Positions 1,171 to 9,587 of a stretch of 64,000 nt of DNA are shown one piece after another. The DNA lies in contig JAURCP010000006.1 of assembly GCA_030828405.1 (NCBI GenBank), positions 12,015-76,014 on the forward strand, in the 5' to 3' direction. The translations under genes were made by a program, and so were the position numbers. Numbering within the stretch: position 1 is the stretch's first letter; each line of letters opens with the position of its first letter. The notes below the pieces were generated by a model, which saw only the letters and a list, made by a program, of their open reading frames with translations, had not been told where the DNA came from and ran no database searches. This DNA comes from Thermoplasmatota archaeon. Its GTDB lineage: Archaea; Thermoplasmatota; Poseidoniia; Poseidoniales; Thalassarchaeaceae.

Positions 1171-2259
1171 GTGAGTGAACCTTCAGTTACTGTCATTATT
1201 CCCAGTGTTAGGAATCATGAGGAGTTAGATATTGTACTAAAAGGTCTGAAAAAACAGACTTATAGTGGACAAATCGAAACAGTAGTTGTTGGTCCTACAA
1301 ATGATCCAGGAAAGGACATCAGTCTAGAGAACAATATTCGATTTATTGATGACGAAGGTTCGAGAACTAGAGCTGATGCATGTAACATAGCAATAAAATC
1401 TACAAGTTCGGAACTGATACTATTCACTGATGACGATGTTATTGTTCCAAAAGATTGGGTTAAGAAATTAGTTTCATGGTTTGAAGATGAGGAAGTGAGT
1501 GGAGTTGGAGGACCTAATTTTGCTCCAGTTGATGAATCCACAATGTGGCAGCAAGTAATTGATGTTGCATTCTGTAGTACAATATTTACTGCTGGAACTA
1601 ATTATGGTAAAGTAGGTAAGAAAGACCTAGATGAAGTCAATCAACTTCCTGGAGTTAATTGTGCTTACAGGCGCTCTGTTCTAGAAGAAGTAAATGGATT
1701 TGATGAAGGCGCTATTGGAGCGGAAGATGTTATGCTTGATCATAGAATCAGGATGACTGGAAAGAAACTATGGACAGATAGAACAGCCATTATGTGGCAT
1801 AGAAGAAGAGACCTTTCAAGAGTTAAGAAACAAATTAGGAACTATGGACTTGTGAGAACTTTAGCCAGTCATCAATACCCTGAACTAAGAGCACCTACAC
1901 ATACTGCAGTTGCATTTTTCCCCCCAATAGTAATAGCGGCATTTGGATTCTTTTTTTGGGGCCTAGCAAATGGGGGATTGGCATGGCCTGATTTCTGGGA
2001 TATTCGATTATCTACAGTACCTATGGGCCTACCTAGATTAGGAGTTCATACATTACCAACACTAATTCTATTGTATAATATATTAGCATGGTATGGATCT
2101 TGGAAAGGCAATTCCCCCAGTAAATCAAAGAAGACCATCTTTCTTTCTTCAATAGCAACTTACACTTTACATTGGAACTATGGAATGGGAGTATTAACCG
2201 GTTGGATTAGAATCTTAAGAGGGAATTCGGGACTTCAGATTGATGATAGGAATAGATAA
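1171..2259 (+). CDS. Family 2 glycosyltransferase (GT-A) with C-terminal transmembrane region
   Basis: N-terminal VIIPSVRN...FTDDDVI (DxD) GT2 signature, and hydrophobic C-terminal helices. Confidence 0.65.
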   Translation: MSEPSVTVIIPSVRNHEELDIVLKGLKKQTYSGQIETVVVGPTNDPGKDISLENNIRFIDDEGSRTRADACNIAIKSTSSELILFTDDDVIVPKDWVKKLVSWFEDEEVSGVGGPNFAPVDESTMWQQVIDVAFCSTIFTAGTNYGKVGKKDLDEVNQLPGVNCAYRRSVLEEVNGFDEGAIGAEDVMLDHRIRMTGKKLWTDRTAIMWHRRRDLSRVKKQIRNYGLVRTLASHQYPELRAPTHTAVAFFPPIVIAAFGFFFWGLANGGLAWPDFWDIRLSTVPMGLPRLGVHTLPTLILLYNILAWYGSWKGNSPSKSKKTIFLSSIATYTLHWNYGMGVLTGWIRILRGNSGLQIDDRNR

Positions 2260-2307
2260 TTTATATTATTGATTTTTCAAAAATCAAGTTATTGATATAA
2301 CCAGAAC

Positions 2308-3468
2308 GTGATTCTGAAGTGTATGCATCCGGAACAACTACGCAGGGTTATACTAAGGATTGTAACATCTCTTATGAATCTCATAATTGGCCCTTCAGGT
2401 GCTTGGTATGCTCTTGGATTAGAAGGTCTGTGCTTGTACATTATCGTTAATGTATTTACTAAATCTGTAGTTGCAGAGATTTCGGCTCTAAACGAAAAGA
2501 TATCTAGATTGGGATATAGAATATCTCCTATCTTTCTGATTTCTGCAGGTTTCTTGCCACTTATCTCATCCAACTGGTATACTTTTGTGATTCTTATACC
2601 TATTCTATTGGCAACATATGTGGGATTATTTTGGACAGGCTTTCATGGAATTAGAAAACTAAGAACTTTAAAAACTGAAAGAGAATCAGTAAGATCCTTT
2701 CAACATTATGAAATTGTAAGTACTTTATTGGCTGCTTTTTTAGTTTTATTTCTTAAACAAGTTGAGATGGTAAGTTATGCTGGATATATAGGCTCGATTC
2801 TAGCTTTCATTGCATTGGTAATTCCAATGAAAATAGGTGAAGGGACAATCAGAATATCAAGTGGCGATATGTTAAATCAAGAAGTAATACTTGCAAGATT
2901 AACCACAGGTTCTTTCGGAATCATTGGTTTTTCGACAGTTTGGTGTATGAGGATAATTGCTTTGGAATACGCAGGAATTTCAGGGATTGCGGGGATGGTG
3001 GCTCTTTCCAGTTTAGGAGGACATATTATATCTAATTTGAATGATAAAAAACTGAGGCCAGAATCGGCTGATAATAAAAACTGGATATGGGGGACTAACA
3101 TAGTAATAACTGGTATTCTTATTATGATTGGAAGTTTAATTTTAAGGCTTGAAGAATTTTTCCTAACTGGTTATCTGATTACAAGAGGGGGCACGTCTGG
3201 TATTTTACATCCTTTAGAAGTAAGAATTTCTGGAGAATTATTAATCGGAGATGGAGGTGAAATTGGGCTAAGAGAGAGAATAAAATTCAGAACACAAACA
3301 AAAATTATGTTTTTTTATATTATCTGCAATTATATGTTGTACAATATAATTGGAGAAATTAATCTTATTTTATTAGTCTTATTGCCTTTGATAACATCAT
3401 TATATTGTTGTAAGTTAAATTTGGAGATTATTGATTACTTAAAGACTCACCAACGGGTGCAAGGTTGA
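2308..3468 (+). CDS. Polytopic integral membrane protein (hypothetical)
   Basis: 386 aa with many predicted TM helices. No recognisable catalytic motif. Confidence 0.5.
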   Translation: MILKCMHPEQLRRVILRIVTSLMNLIIGPSGAWYALGLEGLCLYIIVNVFTKSVVAEISALNEKISRLGYRISPIFLISAGFLPLISSNWYTFVILIPILLATYVGLFWTGFHGIRKLRTLKTERESVRSFQHYEIVSTLLAAFLVLFLKQVEMVSYAGYIGSILAFIALVIPMKIGEGTIRISSGDMLNQEVILARLTTGSFGIIGFSTVWCMRIIALEYAGISGIAGMVALSSLGGHIISNLNDKKLRPESADNKNWIWGTNIVITGILIMIGSLILRLEEFFLTGYLITRGGTSGILHPLEVRISGELLIGDGGEIGLRERIKFRTQTKIMFFYIICNYMLYNIIGEINLILLVLLPLITSLYCCKLNLEIIDYLKTHQRVQG

Positions 3469-5251
3469 GTTTAGATTTAGATAATTCCAATTTAATTTTA
3501 TTTTTTCTAGAATAAAGAAATAAACTCTGAGATTTAGGTTTATTTAATCCAGTAAATTCGCCAAACATTTCTCCTACTAGATGTAACTTAATTTTGTTAT
3601 TCTTACCCAATTCTTCAATATCTAAAATCCAACTAAATATCAAACTTCGAAAAATATTATCGTTACTTTTTGGATTCTCAAGAGCGGTATCTATCGAGAG
3701 TTCGGCTCTTAAAAGAAAATTATCAATCTCTGATAGGAATATTTTCATTTCTCCTAAAATTTCTTTAGATAATTCGTTTTCTAATTCAGAGCGATCTTCT
3801 GTCCAGATACTAGATCTGAATGTTGTATTCTGATAATTTTCTTTCCAGTTCTTATTTGTTATCCTTGAATCACTTAAGAATGAATTAATCTTCATGAAAA
3901 GTTGTGCTATTATTACTGATATATTGATTATTCCTGTGTAATTATTCTTACTTTCTTGAATATTTAACGCTGATTTAGCGAATCTTATTTCTTTTAATAC
4001 ACTCTCAATTATACTGCTAGTTTCATTTCGAACTATAGATTCCCTGAAACCTGAATCTTTAGGAGATGAACGATTGAAATCCAATCTGACAACTTTCATT
4101 GTTGTAGTTTTACAATAGAAATTTGTAAGATTCTTTGCTTCTGAACCAATGGTTGTAGATAAAAACGATTTAATAATCAGCCTCTTTTCTTCTTTTTTAT
4201 CTGTTTTTATCCTGTTTGAGGGGTTATTTTGATGTTCCAATAACACATCGAGACAATTCAGAATATATCCAGATTTCTTTTCTGATGACTCAAGATTTTT
4301 TCTTTCTTTCATTTCCATGTTTTCAAAATATTTATTTAAATCAGGATTTAGTGTCTTTCTAAAATCCCTAATTTTCTCTTCTATTTCATGTACTGGTTGA
4401 AGCCTAATTTTCTTATTTTTCCTCAATACCCATAATGACCACCAATAGTAGGCCTTGGCCCATACAGAATCATCTTCACGACATAATTCATCCATTTTTT
4501 TAATATAAGAAAATATATTCTTATAATCAGTTTCCCAATTATTACCAGATGGAATTAACCTTCTATTATTAGTCAAGTGGTATTGCATTAAAATTAACAT
4601 ATCAAGATGCTCAGTTTTTGTAGCACTATTATTGCGTATAGCTTTAAACCCATTTTTACTTTTCAAATTATCAAACTTAAACCAAGCAGCATCTAAAATT
4701 TTGTCAATTAATTCAAGAACTTCGGGGTTCTCAGAAAAACCCACACGAATTCTTCTGACCTGTTGTATTTTCGCTACAATCAGATATGTTGCGCAAATAT
4801 CTTTTGTTTCAACACCGTGTAATTTTTGTGTAATTTTCGATCTGAAATAATAACTATTGATTAAATCCTGTAAAGAATCTCTAGTGTAAGGATCATCTAT
4901 TTGCTGAAACCATTCATTCAAACATGGCCTTAATAATTTGTAACTACCCTCTGGATGGATTAAGTTATGTGATTGACCTATTAATCCCGATATATCACGT
5001 CTATTCCTTGAAGTGAAATTTATTATCAGCATTGAATCCTCAACACCGAAGTAATCTACCATGATTTTAAAGCTCTCTAAGGCTGATAATTTTGTTTTAG
5101 GTTCAGTGGTTAAATCTGAAAATGATTTATTATATTGCTCTGCAGCCTTAGCCCAATAAAGAATTAAATCTTTACTAAATTTATCTCTTTTCTCATTGTT
5201 AGAATAATGGAGATTACAGAAATCTTCACAACTTAACCTCTTGGACACCAT
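3428..5251 (-). CDS. Large hypothetical protein (607 aa, Lys/Asn-rich), flanks the accessory island
   Basis: Long intact ORF with very AT-rich codon usage and no motif I recognise. Confidence 0.5.
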   Translation of the reverse strand: MVSKRLSCEDFCNLHYSNNEKRDKFSKDLILYWAKAAEQYNKSFSDLTTEPKTKLSALESFKIMVDYFGVEDSMLIINFTSRNRRDISGLIGQSHNLIHPEGSYKLLRPCLNEWFQQIDDPYTRDSLQDLINSYYFRSKITQKLHGVETKDICATYLIVAKIQQVRRIRVGFSENPEVLELIDKILDAAWFKFDNLKSKNGFKAIRNNSATKTEHLDMLILMQYHLTNNRRLIPSGNNWETDYKNIFSYIKKMDELCREDDSVWAKAYYWWSLWVLRKNKKIRLQPVHEIEEKIRDFRKTLNPDLNKYFENMEMKERKNLESSEKKSGYILNCLDVLLEHQNNPSNRIKTDKKEEKRLIIKSFLSTTIGSEAKNLTNFYCKTTTMKVVRLDFNRSSPKDSGFRESIVRNETSSIIESVLKEIRFAKSALNIQESKNNYTGIINISVIIAQLFMKINSFLSDSRITNKNWKENYQNTTFRSSIWTEDRSELENELSKEILGEMKIFLSEIDNFLLRAELSIDTALENPKSNDNIFRSLIFSWILDIEELGKNNKIKLHLVGEMFGEFTGLNKPKSQSLFLYSRKNKIKLELSKSKLNLAPVGESLSNQ

Positions 5252-5584
5252 AGCTGTACGTAATAATTAATACTTATAAATGTTAATATTTATCACCTCA
5301 AATTGAATAAAAATATAAAAAAGATTAATAATAAATAGTTATTTTTAGGCGATAAATATGCCATTTGAGAAATAATTGTTTAAAGTTGTTTTTATAAAAT
5401 TGAATAATATAAAAAATCATTGGGCATATATAGGGCCGTACCGTATTATAGTATGTAGTGCACCCCGGCATTCGTTTCACAAAAATGTGGGGGGAAGGGC
5501 AGAAACTGCTTCACCACTCCCATGAGTGGAGATGGAGTAGTTTATGACGCCAAATTGGTGAAAGAAAAAGGATAACGTAAAACT

Positions 5585-5614
5585 CTAGAGGGTGTAAGAA
5601 ATGACCACCTCTAG
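5585..5614 (+). promoter_or_regulatory. Imperfect hairpin (ctagaggg-tg ... cacctctag) upstream of first small-peptide gene
   Basis: Inverted repeat read directly from the sequence, about 45 nt upstream of an AAGGAG Shine-Dalgarno. Confidence 0.4.
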
Positions 5615-5659
5615 TTTCAATATGAATAATAAATTATAAAAAAAAAGGAGATAATGAAT

Positions 5660-5746
5660 ATGGGATTTCTAAAATGGCTTTTACTCGGATCAGGTGCTGC
5701 TTACTTTGAACACACAGTAAGCGGTGACGATGACGATGATTGTTAA
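5660..5746 (+). CDS. Small hydrophobic peptide 1 (28 aa, MGFLKWLLLGSGAAYFEHTVSGDDDDDC)
   Basis: AAGGAG SD sits 9 nt upstream of the ATG. N-terminal MGF/LL motif is shared with two downstream paralogs. Below the 60-aa track threshold. Confidence 0.5.
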   Translation: MGFLKWLLLGSGAAYFEHTVSGDDDDDC

Positions 5747-5799
5747 CGTAAAAATAAATAAAAAATGACTTTCTAAATGAATAGGAATTTAGAGTTCGC

Positions 5800-5816
5800 A
5801 TCTCGGACACAGAGAT
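5800..5816 (+). promoter_or_regulatory. Conserved hairpin atctc-ggacaca-gagat upstream of peptide 2
   Basis: 5-bp stem with a 7-nt loop. The paralogous copy upstream of peptide 3 (gcctc-gggtaca-gaggc) keeps pairing through compensatory changes. Confidence 0.45.
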
Positions 5817-5840
5817 AAAAATACAAGGAGTGTGATAAAA

Positions 5841-5963
5841 ATGGGTTTGTTTAGAGCATTGTTCTGGACGGGAGCTACAATAGCGACTGGAGGATTGGCG
5901 CTTGCTTTGCTTCCAAACGACTGGGACGGTATAGACGGATATGACGGTGGCTGTGACGAATAA
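5841..5963 (+). CDS. Small hydrophobic peptide 2 (40 aa, MGLFRALFWTGATIATGGLALALLPNDWDGIDGYDGGCDE)
   Basis: ACAAGGAGTGTGATA SD context nearly identical to peptide 3. TM-like N-terminus, acidic C-terminus with Cys. Confidence 0.55.
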   Translation: MGLFRALFWTGATIATGGLALALLPNDWDGIDGYDGGCDE

Positions 5964-6026
5964 TCGCCACATACACTGTTTCGCAAATGCGATGACTTGC
6001 AGGATGAATATGGATCTTGCCCCCGT

Positions 6027-6043
6027 GCCTCGGGTACAGAGGC
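6027..6043 (+). promoter_or_regulatory. Conserved hairpin gcctc-gggtaca-gaggc upstream of peptide 3
   Basis: Same position and shape as the 5800-5816 hairpin, with compensatory base changes. Confidence 0.45.
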
Positions 6044-6069
6044 GACACAAACAAGGAGCGTGATATGTT

Positions 6070-6186
6070 ATGGGATTGCTAAAAGCAATCGTAGGCGGAA
6101 CTGTTGGTTTGGTCGTGGGCACAATGACTTGTGCACCAATCACTGGAATGATTGGTGGTGCATTTGTAGCTCAAGACTGGGAATAG
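6070..6186 (+). CDS. Small hydrophobic peptide 3 (38 aa, MGLLKAIVGGTVGLVVGTMTCAPITGMIGGAFVAQDWE)
   Basis: ACAAGGAGCGTGATA SD 11 nt upstream. Gly-rich TM helix, acidic C-terminus. Confidence 0.55.
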   Translation: MGLLKAIVGGTVGLVVGTMTCAPITGMIGGAFVAQDWE

Positions 6187-6281
6187 TTCAATGATTACAT
6201 GTGTAAATGTTGGCATGATAATGACATTTGAGAAGGTGCAAGACCTGGAAAAAAATATGAAGAAGGAAAGGAGGTAACGTA

Positions 6282-6491
6282 ATGGGAAACATAACGACAA
6301 AAGTCGAAATTGCTGACCATACGGGGCACACCACCGCTTTATTGACTCAGAGAGAGACTGTTGATCTCGTATCTGACAATGAGCGTTGGGTTTTCGCTGG
6401 AGGACAAATGATTGAGCCAGAAGAATTGGCTGAAGCAGATTGGTCTACAGTTGGAACCGTGAGAGTGATGCCGCGTATTGTGTTCGGTTGA
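6282..6491 (+). CDS. 69-aa protein, possible ThiS/MoaD-like beta-grasp (ends ...MPRIVFG)
   Basis: AGGAGGT SD. Length and the C-terminal pattern (hydrophobic-x-hydrophobic-FG) resemble sulfur-carrier/Ubl proteins. Higher GC than surrounding genes. Confidence 0.45.
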   Translation: MGNITTKVEIADHTGHTTALLTQRETVDLVSDNERWVFAGGQMIEPEELAEADWSTVGTVRVMPRIVFG

Positions 6492-6583
6492 TTGGCTGAT
6501 TATTTGCTCGAAAGAGCCCGGATTAACGTAAGTCAAGATAGGGTATACTCTATGTTGATGCAAAATAAAAAGGAGAAAATAAA

Positions 6584-7087
6584 ATGGAAACAAAACAAAT
6601 AAATAATGAAAAAATAATAGAAAATGAAATAGATTGGAAACAACACATACGAGATGTGCATAATGATATGGCAGATGATATAGAATATCTCTTCCCTAAC
6701 AATTCCACTGAAGCCTTTATGACAGCAATATGGAAAATGTCTGTTGACTTATTAGAAAGGATAGAAGTGATGGTCATCGTCGATAATAAAGATGATTTGT
6801 ATATCAGTAGCGGCACACCATCGTTAGTCTCGTTCAAAGATCATGAGGATGAATTAAAAATTGGAGATAAAATGAAGTTGCCACTGAAATGTTGCATCCA
6901 TACACACCCTTCAGGTAAAGCATACTTTAGCGATACTGATTGGAATACAATTAACACATGGAAGAGCGATATTGAATCATGCATTGTACTAGGTAAAAAT
7001 GAATATTTAGCATATAATCCTAAATCTAAATTAGCTAAAATGGTTCACTATGGGCTTCTTGAGAACAATTTGAGAGGTGAGCAATAA
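6584..7087 (+). CDS. JAB/JAMM (MPN+) metallopeptidase domain protein
   Basis: Canonical JAMM motif HTHPSGKAYFSDTD (HxHx7Sx2D). AAAGGAG SD. First gene of the coupled operon. Confidence 0.75.
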   Translation: METKQINNEKIIENEIDWKQHIRDVHNDMADDIEYLFPNNSTEAFMTAIWKMSVDLLERIEVMVIVDNKDDLYISSGTPSLVSFKDHEDELKIGDKMKLPLKCCIHTHPSGKAYFSDTDWNTINTWKSDIESCIVLGKNEYLAYNPKSKLAKMVHYGLLENNLRGEQ

Positions 7088-7311
7088 TGATTGAGGATTT
7101 AGTTATGAAAGATGATATTAGAATGATTATTGAATTAATAGAAGATAAGGGGTATGATTTAGATGAGGAAACAATTTCCTCATTAACAAAATATATTGAA
7201 ACAAATTTATCTTCATTGTGCAGAATCAATGAAATTTTAACTGGTATTACTGCTTACAAGAATCTTATCAAACAGGAAGAAGAAAAAATCGAAAGTTTAG
7301 GTGGTGTTTAA
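7087..7311 (+). CDS. 74-aa protein ending in LGGV; candidate conjugation tag or adaptor
   Basis: Start overlaps the JAB stop (TAATG). C-terminal diglycine followed by one residue. Predicted largely helical, so the fold is uncertain. Confidence 0.5.
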   Translation: MIEDLVMKDDIRMIIELIEDKGYDLDEETISSLTKYIETNLSSLCRINEILTGITAYKNLIKQEEEKIESLGGV

Positions 7312-8076
7312 ATGGATATTAACGAAGAAGAATATACGCCAGAGAGAAAGAATGGAATTTTCAGATTTAGTATTCCTAATTTAGATGCACACAATAAATC
7401 ACTTGAATGGATTGAGTCTGAGAGGAAAAGAATGGGGGCGGAAATTGATTGTATGTTAGAGGATGGATACGACTCAAGTAGGAAATGTCATATTTATGTC
7501 AATGGGAGAGAGTCTGGAATTAATTATAGATTGACATTATCTTTTGAATCTAAAATTGCAAATCTATTATCTAAAAGAATTAATGAAGTTGAATTGAGTG
7601 ATAGAAATCTAAAATCAATTTTATTCACATTTCAAAAATTGATTCATTTCGAAACACATTGGTATGATCATTCGGAAGGGCGCTGGCAGCATATTTGCTT
7701 AGATGTGAAACCTTCTGTTAATCATCCATTTTGGCCAGGAGACCATATTGTTTCTGTAATGAATTGTTTGTCTGAAGACATGACTTCAGTACTTGATAGA
7801 GATATGAAAACTTTAAGAAAAGCAATGACTAAAGCACTTGTAGTCAGTTGGTTCCAAGGCGATAATTCAGATATTATGGGATTTAATAAGGTAAGTCAAT
7901 ATGTAGAGTGGTTAATTCAATTAGAAGAAACAGATAGTGAATTTTCATTTGCAAATAAGAGAGATTTGATTTTAAAAAATATAAAAAATGATTGGGGATA
8001 TTGGGTAGAATCACAAAAAACAAAGCAAATGAAGTTATATGAAAACGTGTTTTCTAGTTTGGAGGAATATCAATGA
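7312..8076 (+). CDS. E2 (UBC)-like protein
   Basis: NHPFWPGDHIVSVMNCL resembles the UBC HPN...C(L) active-site region. It starts immediately after the stop of the upstream gene, and GGTGGTG acts as an SD. Confidence 0.45.
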   Translation: MDINEEEYTPERKNGIFRFSIPNLDAHNKSLEWIESERKRMGAEIDCMLEDGYDSSRKCHIYVNGRESGINYRLTLSFESKIANLLSKRINEVELSDRNLKSILFTFQKLIHFETHWYDHSEGRWQHICLDVKPSVNHPFWPGDHIVSVMNCLSEDMTSVLDRDMKTLRKAMTKALVVSWFQGDNSDIMGFNKVSQYVEWLIQLEETDSEFSFANKRDLILKNIKNDWGYWVESQKTKQMKLYENVFSSLEEYQ

Positions 8077-8744
8077 AAGATGTACTGGATATAGCAATAG
8101 TTGGAGTTGGAGGGATTGGTTCGAACCTCGCATCATTAATTGTGCCATCTCTATCTCAAGGAGATTTATCACAGAGATTTTCAAAAATAAATATCAATCT
8201 ATATGATTCAGATGAAGTCGAAGAAGAAAATATATTTCATCAGAGATTTAATCAATCAAATATCGGTGAAACAAAAGTTTTGGCTACAAAGAAAAACTTA
8301 TCATCTTTTGAGCATGATAAATTAGAAATCGTCCCACATGGAAAGGATGTTCGAGAGAAAGAAGATATTGAAGATAATGACCTAATAGTGGTTTGTGTAG
8401 ATTCTTCAGATGCTAGGATAGTAGTTCATTCAACAAACTCAAAATGGTTAGATCTAAGATGTAGAGGAGATAATTTCATGAGTATAGATTATACTACAAA
8501 GAAAAATATTATCAAATCAATTACCGATATCGACCAAAAACCCGGTTCTTGTCAGTATGAGGGAGCTTTAGAATCAGGTAATATTCAATTTGGTTTCATG
8601 TACGCTGCATCCTTTGGGGCTCAATGGGTGATACAAAACCTTAGAGGAGAAAATGAAGGAAATAATGTGTTGATGCCTTATCCAAGATCAGAAAGTATAA
8701 CATTTGGGACATTAGGTAATTTTGAGAAAGAGGAGGGAAGTTAA
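8073..8744 (+). CDS. Minimal E1-like (ThiF/MoeB/UBA superfamily) adenylyltransferase
   Basis: IAIVGVGGIGSNLA Rossmann motif, DSDEVEEENIFHQRF (D-D-V-E..N..Q) adenylation motif, LIVVCVDSSDARIVV, and a PGSC cysteine. ATGA overlap with the E2-like gene. Only 223 aa and lacks CxxC zinc motifs. Confidence 0.65.
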   Translation: MKDVLDIAIVGVGGIGSNLASLIVPSLSQGDLSQRFSKININLYDSDEVEEENIFHQRFNQSNIGETKVLATKKNLSSFEHDKLEIVPHGKDVREKEDIEDNDLIVVCVDSSDARIVVHSTNSKWLDLRCRGDNFMSIDYTTKKNIIKSITDIDQKPGSCQYEGALESGNIQFGFMYAASFGAQWVIQNLRGENEGNNVLMPYPRSESITFGTLGNFEKEEGS

Positions 8745-8896
8745 TGTCTTGGATAGTTAGGTGTGCATTTTGTGATGAGAAAATTACTATTGGTAAAAAT
8801 CAGTTCAAGAAAGACAAAAATCCATTAACTGAAGAAAGTGAATATGTATGTGCTCATTGTTATCAATCTTTTATTGGCGATCTAGACTCTTATTAA
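8744..8896 (+). CDS. 50-aa zinc-ribbon protein (CAFC...CAHC), not in the ORF track
   Basis: ATG overlaps the E1-like stop (TAATG). Two CxxC pairs spaced about 26 residues apart. 3' end overlaps the convergent gene by about 26 nt. Confidence 0.45.
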   Translation: MSWIVRCAFCDEKITIGKNQFKKDKNPLTEESEYVCAHCYQSFIGDLDSY

Positions 8897-9587
8897 CGTC
8901 GAAAGTTCTCATCTGATCTACAGTCCAATTCTTGGTCCTAGGCCTCCAGAAAATAATAGTAAATACTCCAATAAATAAACCGCCGAAGATAAGATTAAGC
9001 CATCCCTCTGAAATATATCCAGGACTAGCATTAAAGCTTGCCCAAATAAATGATGGAATAATTCCAAATATTAATGAGATAATTAATTCTTCAGATAATA
9101 ACTTATATTTATCAGGTGAGATTGGTAATTTTGGTGCTGTATTCTCAAAATTATTTGAGTTTTTTCTTCGAACTACTCTAAAGAAGTCACAATTTTCTCC
9201 CTTAGGAATCAAAGAAGGATTAGGAGTTCCTGAAACCCATTTTTTTGAAACTTTCATTAACCAATTATCCTCTATAAAGGGCCTACCATCACAATATTTC
9301 GACCAATAAGAACCTCGAATTCTATCTGATAACTCCTCAACTTCATCATTCCCAGAAATCAGACCACTATCCATTGCAAGAGTCCACTCAGATTCTGAGG
9401 CTACATGGCAGTTTTCATTTCGGAGAATAGTTTTCATGGTTCCAGAATCTACTGGCAGATAAGATATTTCAAAATCATAATCAATTTTGACTTCATGCCT
9501 AGGACCGACTCCTCCAAAAAGTATTGAACGATTATCTGAACCAATGAATACTTTTCCTGGATAGACAGTTACCCATTGAATTTCCAA
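8871..9587 (-). CDS. FGE-sulfatase (SUMF1)-like domain protein with C-terminal TM anchor
   Basis: N-terminal WVTVYPGKVFIGSD and C-terminal RGSYW...GENCDFFRVVRR resemble the FGE-sulfatase fold signature. Two C-terminal hydrophobic helices. Confidence 0.4.
   Translation of the reverse strand: MEIQWVTVYPGKVFIGSDNRSILFGGVGPRHEVKIDYDFEISYLPVDSGTMKTILRNENCHVASESEWTLAMDSGLISGNDEVEELSDRIRGSYWSKYCDGRPFIEDNWLMKVSKKWVSGTPNPSLIPKGENCDFFRVVRRKNSNNFENTAPKLPISPDKYKLLSEELIISLIFGIIPSFIWASFNASPGYISEGWLNLIFGGLFIGVFTIIFWRPRTKNWTVDQMRTFDVNKSLDRQ

Follow-up and report, generated by a model that had tools for sequence, protein, structure and literature searches.

Small unannotated genes with structured RNA leaders upstream of ubiquitin-like conjugation genes in Ca. 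Poseidoniales

The closest described relatives of the locus analyzed here are the E1/E2/JAB/ubiquitin-like gene clusters of Iyer et al. 2006 (PMC1779556), the bacterial Bil and Bub operons (PMC11601596), and the Ub/E1/E2/RING/Rpn11 operon of Caldiarchaeum (PMC5654768). The locus lies in a 64-kb stretch of DNA from Ca. Poseidoniales (hereafter, the window) and has in common with the known operons a Gly-ending beta-grasp protein, a ThiF-type E1, and a JAMM peptidase, along with a Cys-bearing putative E2 and a small zinc ribbon, all within one operon. The likeness to Bub type I extends to an E1-JAB fusion that is found in other Poseidoniales lineages, with the E1 forming the N-terminal half here. 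Unlike the known ubiquitin-like operons, this one is led by one to three micro-protein genes, usually together with a polytopic membrane protein. Small membrane-spanning peptides in such operons were found neither in the texts of PMC1779556, PMC11601603, and PMC11601596 nor by a wider literature search, and a literature search likewise produced no paper tying Poseidoniales to this ubiquitin-like system. The genes discussed below are the following.

2308-3468, plus strand: polytopic membrane protein
5634-6143, minus strand: antisense ORF of 169 aa, spurious
5660-5746, plus strand: pep1, 28 aa, short hydrophobic N-terminus and DDDDDC tail, lineage-specific, MGFLKWLLLGSGAAYFEHTVSGDDDDDC
5841-5963, plus strand: pep2, 40 aa, one predicted membrane-spanning helix and the conserved acidic tail LPNDWDGIDGYDGG, 40 homologue clusters, MGLFRALFWTGATIATGGLALALLPNDWDGIDGYDGGCDE
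6070-6186, plus strand: pep3, 38 aa, predicted glycine-zipper helix-break-helix membrane micro-protein, MGLLKAIVGGTVGLVVGTMTCAPITGMIGGAFVAQDWE
6282-6491, plus strand: ubiquitin-like protein, 69 aa, ending ...RIVFG (phmmer against PDB)
6584-7087, plus strand: JAB/JAMM peptidase, 167 aa (Pfam Prok-JAB, E 2e-5)
7087-7311, plus strand: acidic helical protein, 74 aa, conserved operon position
7312-8076, plus strand: putative E2, 254 aa, invariant Cys129 in W..ICLD...WPGD (alignment)
8073-8744, plus strand: E1-like adenylation enzyme (ThiF), 223 aa (Pfam ThiF, 2.3e-13)
8744-8896, plus strand: four-Cys zinc ribbon, 50 aa, last operon gene, called as a gene in L001-L009

Coding status and conservation of the small genes

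The initial annotation reported three genes for tiny peptides in this region, each led by a Shine-Dalgarno (SD) sequence, and all three ORFs are indeed present. The two strands of the window together contain only four matches to the pattern ATG-GGN-[LFI][LFI][KR], three of them at the starts of the peptides. The GTG at position 5832 cannot be the start of pep2 because it is located inside the SD, and the MNM- extension of pep1 from position 5654 is missing in the relatives.

Both pep2 and pep3 are protein-coding; their synonymous sites approach saturation against distant homologues, and their non-synonymous sites have changed little. The comparison of pep2 with distant homologues yielded pS of 0.50–0.92 and pN of 0.12–0.26, with a significant excess of third-position changes (P from 2e-5 to 1.5e-3), and for pep3, the pS/pN values are 0.94/0.09 against L026, 0.91/0.10 against L029, and 0.56/0.04 against L023 (third-position excess for pep2 and pep3 overall, P from 5e-7 to 1.5e-3). 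In L010 and L024, the membrane segment of pep2 is swapped for another hydrophobic sequence, with the frame and the tail retained. These coding tests bear out the proposal that pep2 and pep3 are real small-protein genes absent from the ORF calls. The antisense 169-aa ORF that overlaps them had been suspected of being spurious, and it is, because its frame is broken in four relatives (L003, L006, L009, and L026); pep2 and pep3 are conserved and the called ORF is not.

The case of pep1 is weaker. A search of the JGI metagenomes with a degenerate DNA pattern for GAAYFEHT recovered only two protein variants of pep1, which differ by an in-frame 3-nt indel and retain the SD, too few for a test of substitutions to have any power. 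Compared with L003, pep1 shows three synonymous and six non-synonymous changes and no third-position excess, and its rate of evolution is about that of the non-coding leader. This peptide is restricted to one lineage and is probably encoded by a real gene, although the coding support is weak.

The suggestion that the peptides form a duplicated family holds for the pep2/pep3 pair, which share homologous leaders, the MGLL[KR] start, and an [NQ]DW motif; the pep2 and pep3 profiles align with an hhalign E-value of 8.5e-5 (probability 60%). The MG start is nearly invariant across all three peptide families. None of the three peptides produced a significant match in Pfam, NCBIfam, or PHROGs. A viral origin of pep2 and pep3 was considered and ruled out by the absence of their relatives from all IMG/VR contigs.

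A single transmembrane-like helix had been attributed to each peptide. By Kyte-Doolittle hydropathy in a 19-residue window, this applies to pep2 (1.64) and pep3 (1.70), either of which is predicted to be capable of spanning the membrane, and not to pep1 (0.69), in which the hydrophobic stretch comprises only about 14 residues. The acidic, Cys-containing C-terminus does not survive as a family trait: the C-terminal residues vary in the alignments of pep2 and pep3 alike, the Cys position of the pep2 tail is occupied by C, S, G, or D, and the peptides end in ..CDE, SDE, GDE, SDDD, SDDE, YCDD, QDWE, QDWGK, DDDDDC, or GNDDV. Residue 5 of pep2 is R or S in the alignment and never K. As pep2 has a single basic residue at its N-terminus and its tail carries a charge of −6, the positive-inside rule would place the conserved tail outside the cell, where it could not contact cytosolic enzymes.

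The most conserved protein of the operon is pep3, with 85% identity to its counterpart in L026, compared to 68% for the ubiquitin-like protein, 65% for pep2, 48% for the E1, 37% for the putative E2, and 22% for the 74-aa protein. In the metagenome collection, 342 blocks have a called gene for the identical pep3, and only 14 representatives were found among 1.84 billion proteins. The AlphaFold2 model of pep3 consists of two helices (residues 2-19 and 23-36; pLDDT 71), and the peptide carries a GxxxGxxxG motif (G9/G10, G13, and G17) and a nearly invariant Cys21. Lys5 is invariant in the alignment, and some relatives (P0085 and P0083) have R or nothing at this position. Two Pfam matches of pep3 fall below the gathering thresholds, Gly-zipper_Omp (PF13488; 10.3 bits against 25, E 0.71) and DUF1269 (PF06897; 12.9 bits against 26.9, E 0.14).

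The ubiquitin-like operon and its neighborhood

The placement of the peptides directly upstream of a conjugation module agrees with our findings, in that ubiquitin-like, JAB, and E1 genes adjoin them, with the E2 being putative. For the ubiquitin-like protein, the phmmer search of PDB gave an E-value of 8e-8 on tetra-ubiquitin and about 0.2 on a single domain, and its homologues end in G, or in GG followed by one or two residues. The 167-aa peptidase scores 24.8 bits with Prok-JAB, just below the cut-off of 25, and contains the JAMM motif HxHx7Sx2D (HTHPSGKAYFSDTD, reading H-T-H-PSGKAYF-S-DT-D). The ThiF match of the E1 (residues 6-178; 50.3 bits against a cut-off of 28.1) is its sole Pfam domain; this protein additionally matches PADLOC E1-E2 (7e-12) and, below the cut-off of that family, NCBIfam PRTRC_ThiF (1e-12), and is the only match in a PADLOC scan of the neighboring genes. 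For the 74-aa protein, no family match was obtained in Pfam, NCBIfam, or PHROGs. The 254-aa protein produced no match by phmmer or profile search of PDB, a Pfam search with eight homologues found nothing, and the AlphaFold2 model obtained from a shallow alignment (pLDDT 47) gave only meaningless matches in Foldseek; we therefore refer to this protein, with its invariant cysteine, only as a putative E2.

The plus strand from 5394 to 9100 contains no run of five or more T, and an SD-like motif precedes all nine genes (9/9). From these features, we infer that the nine genes from pep1 to the zinc ribbon are transcribed as a single unit. Farther upstream, the protein encoded at 2308-3468, with tblastn matches in L005 and L008, may be a divergent homologue of the 333–394 aa polytopic membrane protein that precedes the peptides in L006, L009, L010, L026-28, and L031 (colinear hhalign alignment of 210 columns, E 4.4e-4, probability 34%). 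A 607-aa ORF that might have been the remnant of an RNA polymerase or of a membrane protein showed no similarity to either.

The pep2 and pep3 families occur only in Ca. Poseidoniales (Marine Group II). In all but two of the lineages retrieved, they precede the conjugation genes on the same strand. At most loci with enough contig, no more than about 1.5 kb separates pep2 and/or pep3 from the ubiquitin-like, E2-like, or E1 genes downstream, and genes for the polytopic membrane protein and for a T7-like RNA polymerase can usually be found near the operon. The chromosomal location of the locus, close to PCNA and fibrillarin, is constant, with a left flank that differs between strains. The JAB peptidase is present or absent depending on the lineage, and the peptides are unchanged where it is missing; in L024 and L026, its place is taken by a two-helix membrane protein. 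In L015-L018, the stop codon of pep2 overlaps the start of the next gene, which encodes a 245–264 aa protein, and pep2 is still built into the ubiquitin-like operon in both L015-18 and L019-22, which lack the polytopic membrane protein. The neighbors in L023-25 include a downstream radical SAM gene, a large helicase, and an HFX_2341-like protein. Across lineages in which every other neighbor has changed, the peptide genes still point the same way as the ubiquitin-like, E2-like, and E1 genes and still lie close to them. The exceptions are L032 and L034, in which pep3-like and pep2-like genes follow a T7-like RNA polymerase gene and have no adjacent ubiquitin-like genes; thus, the link to the ubiquitin-like system is not obligatory.

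Translation signals and structured leaders

The region upstream of and between the small genes contains the following elements, all on the plus strand.

5389-5398, plus strand: putative archaeal promoter, a TATA-like box with no second match in 5250-6300
5420-5640, plus strand: structured 5' leader of about 220 nt (folding test), in the lineage of the window only
5645-5650, plus strand: SD AAGGAG of pep1, 9 nt before the ATG
5765-5824, plus strand: leader copy 1, upstream of pep2, AUGACUU box with hairpins A (5772-5793) and B (5800-5816)
5825-5836, plus strand: extended SD of pep2, AAGGAG-U-GUGAU, with AAGGAG at 5825-5830, 10 nt before the ATG
5992-6052, plus strand: leader copy 2, upstream of pep3, AUGACUU box with hairpins A (5999-6020) and B (6027-6043)
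6053-6064, plus strand: extended SD of pep3, AAGGAG-C-GUGAU, with AAGGAG at 6053-6058, 11 nt before the ATG

The AAGGAG motifs described 9–11 nt upstream of each peptide are located at exactly 9, 10, and 11 nt, and they stand out against an SD-poor background, as had been surmised: among the 49 long ORFs of the window, a 5-mer SD precedes six, two of which belong to the peptide operon, and 35 have none. The nearly identical 5' context of pep2 and pep3 (ACAAGGAG[T/C]GTGATA) is real as well and represents an extended SD, AGGAG-N-GUGAU, which is perfect in the relatives (AGGAGGUGA) and which we take to be complementary to the 3' end of archaeal 16S rRNA (the window contains no rRNA gene). In many homologues, the weak start codons AUA, AUU, or GUG are found downstream of a perfect SD.

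The hairpin with compensatory changes that had been noticed before pep2 and pep3 was confirmed and in fact consists of two hairpins in each leader of about 60 nt. Across nine copies of the leader, 99% of the cells pair, and both sides have changed in 7 of the 12 pairs, compared to only 27–46% paired in slid controls; RNAalifold recovered both helices independently. A covariance model of the leader (R1) scores 71.5 bits for copy 1 and 76.2 bits for copy 2, its sole matches in the window, and matches only before the small genes of the operon, including copies outside its training set (43 bits in L023-25 and a weaker 17.8 bits before the ubiquitin-like gene in L029). The support for the hairpins is covariation; their thermodynamic stability is unremarkable (z-scores from −1.3 to −1.5). 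The AUGACWUU box alone shows no enrichment, with 8 occurrences in the window where 6 are expected; only the full structured element is specific. At the gathering score, Rfam 15 detected nothing in the window but two tRNAs, and a permissive scan of 5200-6350 returned only chance-level matches (E of at least 1.4). With its good covariation support, the two-hairpin leader is a candidate cis-regulatory RNA motif that appears not to have been described previously. In the centroid folds of the pep2 and pep3 leaders, the SD is predicted to be unpaired.

The TATA-like box falls within a block (GTTTTTATAAAATTGAATAATATAA) that is retained in the window, L003, L005, and L008, with diverged flanks, and could be the promoter of the peptide and ubiquitin-like operon. 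The segment 5420-5640 folds with an MFE of −62 kcal/mol (z −3.4; none of the 200 shuffles as good) and shows a few compensatory changes against L003.

Possible roles of the peptides and comparison with known systems

We propose, with moderate confidence, that pep2 and pep3, and probably pep1, are translated and that the peptides act as membrane partner subunits of the ubiquitin-like machinery. Under this scenario, pep1-pep3 would come first after the promoter in a single long transcript, in the order pep1, pep2, pep3, ubiquitin-like protein, JAB, 74-aa protein, putative E2, E1, and zinc ribbon, and pep2 and pep3 would have arisen by tandem duplication of a unit consisting of the leader and the peptide gene. 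Each peptide cistron would be translated independently from its unusually long SD, and the two-hairpin leader would most likely act at the mRNA level, in processing, stability, or ribosome loading, setting the peptide output apart from that of the enzymes. A single-pass pep2 with an acidic tail and a helix-break-helix pep3 with a glycine zipper may be embedded in the membrane as partners of the conjugation machinery, alongside the polytopic membrane protein usually encoded ahead of them, and may anchor or organize the ubiquitin-like system at the membrane; scaffold or target roles were also considered. An extended version, a membrane-coupled and RNA-controlled system in which the micro-proteins tether the enzymes or accept the ubiquitin-like protein, and which is tied to the chromosomal T7-like RNA polymerase, appears unlikely.

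Doubtful, in our estimate, is the possibility that the peptides are membrane-active effectors or toxins that form pores or cause depolarization, with the ubiquitin-like system controlling them, for example, in defense or abortive infection. The GxxxGxxxG zipper of pep3 is typical of pore formers and is accompanied by the weak Gly-zipper (E 0.7) and DUF1269 (E 0.14) matches, the weak AUA, AUU, and GUG starts behind a perfect SD look as though output were throttled, some loci have defense-like neighbors (the radical SAM, large helicase, and HFX_2341-like genes of L023-25), and the left flank is strain-variable. However, we detected no evident antitoxin or antisense feature and no PADLOC or PHROGs match for the peptides, and among the neighbors PADLOC matched only the E1. 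The SD sequestration and independent locus that characterize type I toxins were not found in this nine-gene operon, which has no T5+ terminator, and we saw no sign of a stand-alone toxin: the genes are operonic, have an SD unpaired in the predicted folds, and are conserved above the enzymes. Given that pep3 is more conserved than any enzyme of the operon and occupies a fixed position near PCNA and fibrillarin, a housekeeping partner fits better than an arms-race effector.

The peptides might instead be small subunits of the polytopic membrane protein, or independent membrane proteins, that are merely cotranscribed with the ubiquitin-like genes, which we regard as rather improbable. This would explain the peptide pairs of L032 and L034 that have no ubiquitin-like genes and the common arrangement in which the membrane protein directly precedes the peptides, and the predicted extracellular DGxDGxDGG tail would suit a cell-surface or, putatively, cation-binding role; yet, the linkage to the ubiquitin-like, E2-like, and E1 genes persists although the other neighbors all change, and L015-18 and L019-22 keep pep2 in the operon in the absence of the membrane protein.

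There is a small chance that the peptides are covalent acceptors, with the ubiquitin-like protein ligated on the cytosolic face at Gly2 (after removal of Met) or Lys5. The near-invariance of the MG start in the three families, the constancy of Lys5 in the pep3 alignment, the predicted N-in topology that would expose both residues to the cytosol, and the location of the peptides immediately upstream of the ubiquitin-like gene are compatible with this role, but position 5 is R or S in pep2, the pep3 relatives P0085 and P0083 have R or nothing there, and recognition would rest on only five cytosolic residues. Such ligation would result in a membrane-anchored ubiquitin-like protein, a functional analogue of Atg8 lipidation.

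Modification of the peptides themselves as E1 substrates, by C-terminal adenylation of the MccB or PaaA type, or as modified-peptide precursors, was another proposal of the initial annotation and is very unlikely, notwithstanding the ThiF-type E1 in the same operon, the many pep2 tails with GG followed by two to four acidic residues, loosely resembling JAB-trimmed ubiquitin-like precursors, and the radical SAM gene downstream in L023-25. The peptides have no fixed C-terminal residue (E, D, K, C, or V, with variable tail length, and no GG at all in L029), their hydrophobic membrane-type core is unlike known precursor peptides, and they are unchanged in lineages that lack JAB. The obvious substrate of the E1 is the dedicated, Gly-ending ubiquitin-like protein of the operon. 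An E1 of the MccB/PaaA type requires an extra N-terminal peptide-binding (clamp) domain; no clamp, nor any Pfam domain besides ThiF, was found in the 223-aa E1. The nearby 633-aa ABC transporter lacks a C39 peptidase domain. A class II bacteriocin with a double-glycine leader was also considered and rejected, as the 633-aa protein consists of ABC_membrane and ABC_tran only and no such leader is present in the peptides, where the conserved MG start runs straight into the hydrophobic segment. Chance frames within a structured non-coding RNA, which the abundance of conserved RNA structure in the region and the lack of a codon-position signal in pep1 might suggest, are already refuted for pep2 and pep3, since RNA structure cannot explain their patterns of synonymous substitution; the frame and tail of pep2 are, moreover, retained around the replaced membrane segment in L010 and L024.

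Few archaea of the surface ocean are as abundant as Marine Group II (Poseidoniales). To our knowledge, no member of this group has been cultured, and their gene content is therefore known almost only via automated annotation, which misses genes this small. Here, predicted membrane peptides of 38–40 residues are among the most conserved products of a eukaryote-like ubiquitin-type operon, suggesting membrane-linked ubiquitin-like signaling in Euryarchaeota; we know of no such peptide components in the described CBASS type II, Bil, Bub, and Caldiarchaeum systems. If the micro-proteins accept the ubiquitin-like protein, the system would parallel Atg8 lipidation, with a protein in place of the lipid. 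Chemical synthesis of the peptides is feasible at their length, and the small size of the E1, putative E2, and ubiquitin-like protein means that they could be expressed.

Several known systems resemble parts of this arrangement. The yeast Cue1 is a small single-pass anchor that recruits the soluble E2 Ubc7 to the ER membrane, and as in that case, a short single-pass protein is encoded here beside ubiquitin-conjugation enzymes, with pep2 in L015-18 translationally coupled to the 245–264 aa protein; however, the two are unrelated in sequence, and E2 binding by Cue1 involves a cytosolic domain of considerable size, in place of which pep2 has just 5 residues or its acidic tail of 15 residues. Type I toxins and glycine-zipper pore formers are similar in size, hydrophobicity, and, for pep3, the GxxxGxxxG motif, but differ from the peptides described here, which are operonic, have no evident antisense RNA partner, have a predicted accessible SD, and are extremely conserved across an archaeal order. 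In MccA/MccB (microcin C7) and PaaP/PaaA, a small peptide gene is likewise located beside a gene for a ThiF-family enzyme; in contrast, the peptides here have no invariant C-terminal residue and possess a hydrophobic membrane-type core, the E1 is ThiF-only, and a real ubiquitin-like substrate is present. KdpF, CydX, and AcrZ are small accessory membrane subunits encoded inside operons and, like the peptides, are 30–40 aa long with one hydrophobic helix, cotranscribed with a partner complex, and often missed by annotation; the differences are that a ubiquitin-like conjugation system would take the place of the transporter or oxidase as partner and that pep2 and pep3 each come with an elaborate conserved RNA leader.

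Peptide genes and their constraint

Features of the peptide region (window coordinates)
5389-5398, plus strand: TATA-like box upstream of the ~220-nt pep1 leader
5420-5640, plus strand: structured leader of ~220 nt between the TATA-like box and pep1
5660-5746, plus strand: pep1, 28 aa
5841-5963, plus strand: pep2, 40 aa
6070-6186, plus strand: pep3, 38 aa
5634-6143, minus strand: 169-aa antisense ORF overlapping the peptide genes

The three micro-protein ORFs proposed in the initial annotation were confirmed, each ATG being preceded by an AAGGAG Shine-Dalgarno (SD) site, at a distance of 9, 10, and 11 nt, respectively. The SD-rich character of the locus is real, given that a 5-mer SD precedes only 6 of the 49 long ORFs in the window, whereas 35 lack an SD altogether. 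The common peptide start, ATG-GGN-[LFI][LFI][KR], occurs at four sites in the window, counting both strands, and three of the four belong to the peptides.

The analysis firmly establishes that pep2 and pep3 are genuine hydrophobic micro-proteins, specific to Poseidoniales and under very strong constraint. Gene calling recovered the exact 38-aa sequence of pep3 in 342 blocks of a public assembly collection, and its synonymous and non-synonymous differences per site (pS/pN) are 0.94/0.09 against L026, 0.91/0.10 against L029, and 0.56/0.04 against L023 (L numbers denote related loci from other contigs), with differences from L026 distributed 4/2/23 over the codon positions (P = 5e-7). Against the more distant relatives, synonymous sites approach saturation and the protein is almost unchanged. 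The pep3 family is a narrow one, with 14 representatives in a set of 1.84 billion proteins; homologues of pep2 fall into 40 clusters, the consensus being MGLLRGIFWxTAAxATGGLALALLPNDWDGIDGYDGGxDE. For pep2, pS is 0.50-0.92 vs pN of 0.12-0.26 in loci retrieved through pep3, which makes this test unbiased for pep2. Between the window and L026, identity is 85% for pep3, 68% for the ubiquitin-like protein encoded downstream, 65% for pep2, 48% for the E1, 37% for the putative E2, and 22% for a 74-aa protein. The suspicion that the 169-aa antisense ORF is spurious was borne out by interruption of its frame in four relatives.

In pep2, conservation resides in the TGGLALALLP core and the DGIDGYDGG tail; the tail cysteine, initially regarded as a shared trait, does not hold as such because this position varies among C, S, G, and D. 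L010 and L024 have a different hydrophobic sequence in place of the pep2 hydrophobic segment and retain the frame and the acidic tail. In pep3, residues K5-L14, G17, and P23 do not vary, and Cys21, within the hydrophobic region, hardly does; the AlphaFold2 model (pLDDT 71) consists of helix 2-19, a break at T-C-A, and helix 23-36. Codons 2-7 of pep3 (6073-6089, plus strand) contain a perfect 7-bp inverted repeat, GAUUGCU-AAA-AGCAAUC, which is maintained by G-U wobble in L005 and L010 and missing in L026. The peptides produced no match to curated families.

Pep1 probably is a coding gene, albeit a young one under weak constraint. Only two protein variants, MGFLK... and MFGLLK..., were found in the JGI metagenome collection; the difference between them is an in-frame indel, and the SD is retained. 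The substitution pattern is uninformative on coding. The TM-like helix originally ascribed to all three peptides does not extend to pep1, the hydrophobic stretch of which is too short to span the membrane. A 28-aa peptide, MIFGILGTIRQILNPIEWTSDGTGNDDV, in a similar slot of L023 and L024 behind the conserved leader, is possibly related to pep1. In the same loci (L023 ~1650-1717, L024 ~845-912), pep3 is followed by an extra SD-led 21-aa ORF, MSYIDDDDDDCNSDPPWYEYE, with a poly-Asp-Cys motif as in the pep1 tail.

Structured leaders and translation starts

A conserved structured leader precedes pep2 and pep3, and this is likewise firmly shown. In the homologous ~60-nt element, an AUGACUU box precedes two hairpins: A, of 7 bp with the purine-rich loop GAAUAGGA, and B, of 5 bp with the loop GGGYACA. 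An A/C-rich spacer then connects to the SD. The compensatory changes noted earlier were substantiated: across nine leader copies, pairing holds in 99% of cells, with both sides changed in 7 of the 12 pairs; 0 of 500 shuffles reached the observed covariation score, and sliding the partner columns reduces pairing to 27-46%. RNAalifold recovered both helices. The covariance model matched the 64-kb window at 5765-5824 and 5992-6052 only, and its significant matches in 25 other loci lay only directly upstream of the small genes of the operon; outside the training set, L023-25 scored 43 bits and a weaker match (17.8 bits) preceded the ubiquitin-like gene of L029. The stability z-scores of these leaders are ordinary, and the case for structure rests on covariation; curated RNA families yielded no match. 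In the centroid folds, the SD is single-stranded and hence left exposed by the hairpins.

Tandem duplication of a unit made up of leader and peptide gene is supported by the leader and the MGLL[KR] start that pep2 and pep3 have in common and by their hhalign match (E 8.5e-5, probability 60%), in line with the duplicated family originally proposed. The similar 5' context of the two genes was confirmed as well, although it amounts to an extended SD, AGGAG-N-GUGAU, presumably complementary to the archaeal 16S 3' end; relatives carry the perfect 9-nt AGGAGGUGA. In many of these, an AUA, AUU, GUG, or UUG start lies 4-7 nt after the perfect SD (loci L006 6423, L009 5700, L010 9773, L029 131 and 2476; proteins P0024, P0046, P0048, P0055, P0081, P0006), and the homologues thus apparently combine a very strong SD with a weak start codon.

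The ~220-nt pep1 leader, a conserved structured RNA (MFE -62 kcal/mol, z -3.4), shows a few compensatory changes vs L003, was found only in close relatives of the window, and has no Rfam match. The spacer before the ubiquitin-like gene (6187-6281, plus strand) contains an AAUGACAUU box and a short hairpin, as do the corresponding spacers of L023, L026, and L029, with a compensatory change (AGGU/ACCU vs AGGG/CCCU). Each of the operon's first four intergenic spacers measures 92-106 nt.

The ubiquitin-like operon in Poseidoniales

Genes downstream of the peptides, in order
Gene 1: 69-aa protein ending in Gly, matching ubiquitin in PDB
Gene 2: JAMM peptidase (JAB)
Gene 3: 74-aa acidic protein
Gene 4: 254-aa protein, invariant Cys in W..ICLD..WPGD context
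Gene 5: ThiF-type E1
Gene 6: four-Cys zinc ribbon

Of the E1/E2/JAB module initially placed downstream of the peptides, the position, the ThiF-type E1, and the JAB were confirmed; for the 254-aa protein as E2, sequence and fold methods all gave no supporting match. Between positions 5394 and 9100, the plus strand contains no runs of five or more T, and SD-like motifs occur throughout the operon. The 50-aa zinc ribbon (8744-8896, plus strand; CAFC...CAHC), immediately 3' of the E1, overlaps the 3' end of an opposite-strand 238-aa ORF. It is a called gene in every close relative and may act as a minimal E3-like protein or adaptor.

The window (GC ~37%) is an archaeal chromosome segment encoding PCNA and a GT2 glycosyltransferase; related contigs additionally encode fibrillarin, Nop, TFIIS, and TBP. 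The peptide homologues come from genomes of 'Ca. Thermoplasmatota', Ca. Poseidoniales, and Thalassarchaeaceae, and the source is therefore a Marine Group II archaeon. No IMG/VR contigs carrying pep2 or pep3 relatives were found.

Pep2 and pep3 are firmly shown to be genetically coupled to the ubiquitin-like conjugation operon: in 40 related loci, the peptides are co-oriented with and adjoin the ubiquitin-like, E2-like, and E1 genes, and almost all other neighbours differ. The common ancestral layout begins with a T7-like RNA polymerase gene on the opposite strand, followed by that of a 333-394 aa polytopic membrane protein and then by pep2 and pep3, which lead into the ubiquitin-like gene and the remainder of the operon. 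Within the window, the peptides are set apart by a 607-aa ORF from a membrane protein that is probably a divergent copy of the 333-394 aa protein (hhalign E 4.4e-4), and a putative new promoter, the ~220-nt leader, and pep1 occupy the gap. Other lineages encode an E1-JAB fusion (409 aa), with a ubiquitin-like protein terminating in GG plus 1-2 residues and a pep2 stop overlapping the next start. In one lineage (L024 1340-1666, L026 6491-6832), the position of JAB is taken by a 108-113 aa membrane protein, predicted to have two membrane-spanning helices, that carries an N-terminal MNETR repeat. The E2-like gene is the sole operon neighbour kept in L011, L013, and L014; in L032 and L034, a pep3-like and a pep2-like gene come directly after the RNA polymerase, and ubiquitin-like genes are not adjacent.

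The T7-like single-subunit RNA polymerase (1206-1429 aa; Pfam PF00940, E 1e-50) adjoins the locus in many Poseidoniales contigs (L034 1557-5846; L006 923-4819, minus strand; also L009, L010, L021, L026-L028, L031, L032). It is not encoded in the window, and we found no literature on such an enzyme in Marine Group II. The slot that it has in other strains is here held by the 607-aa ORF (3428-5251, minus strand), which gave no match to Pfam, NCBIfam, or PHROGs, is located where the GC of the window is lowest (2001-6000, GC 0.32), has an 87%-identical copy in L003, and looks like a strain-variable insertion. Downstream of the E1, L023 (3742-9560) encodes an HFX_2341-N-like protein, a radical SAM enzyme, and a >1100-aa helicase (AAA_11/AAA_12), a defence-island-like neighbourhood.

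Possible roles of the peptides

The most economical mechanism, to which we give an even chance, is that the peptides are membrane-embedded partner subunits of the ubiquitin-like system which, together with the polytopic membrane protein, would localise or organise conjugation at the membrane. The main difficulty is topology because the charge distribution predicts an outward-facing conserved acidic pep2 tail. A membrane-active effector or toxin, as first suggested, appears unlikely; the peptides failed membership tests for toxin, bacteriocin, and MccA-type families. That they are independent membrane subunits seems more doubtful still, and a role as covalent acceptors of the ubiquitin-like protein is improbable. 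Least plausible by far are E1 substrates or modified-peptide precursors with the MccB-like chemistry previously envisaged, considering that the peptide C-termini are variable, a dedicated ubiquitin-like substrate is already present, the E1 is a single-domain protein of 223 aa, and the peptides persist in lineages that lost JAB.

No description of the peptides and their leader RNA was found in the searchable literature. The operon is a new variant among the known prokaryotic ubiquitin-like systems, and the nearest functional analogies for the putative partner subunits would be small operon-encoded membrane subunits and the yeast Cue1-Ubc7 anchor.
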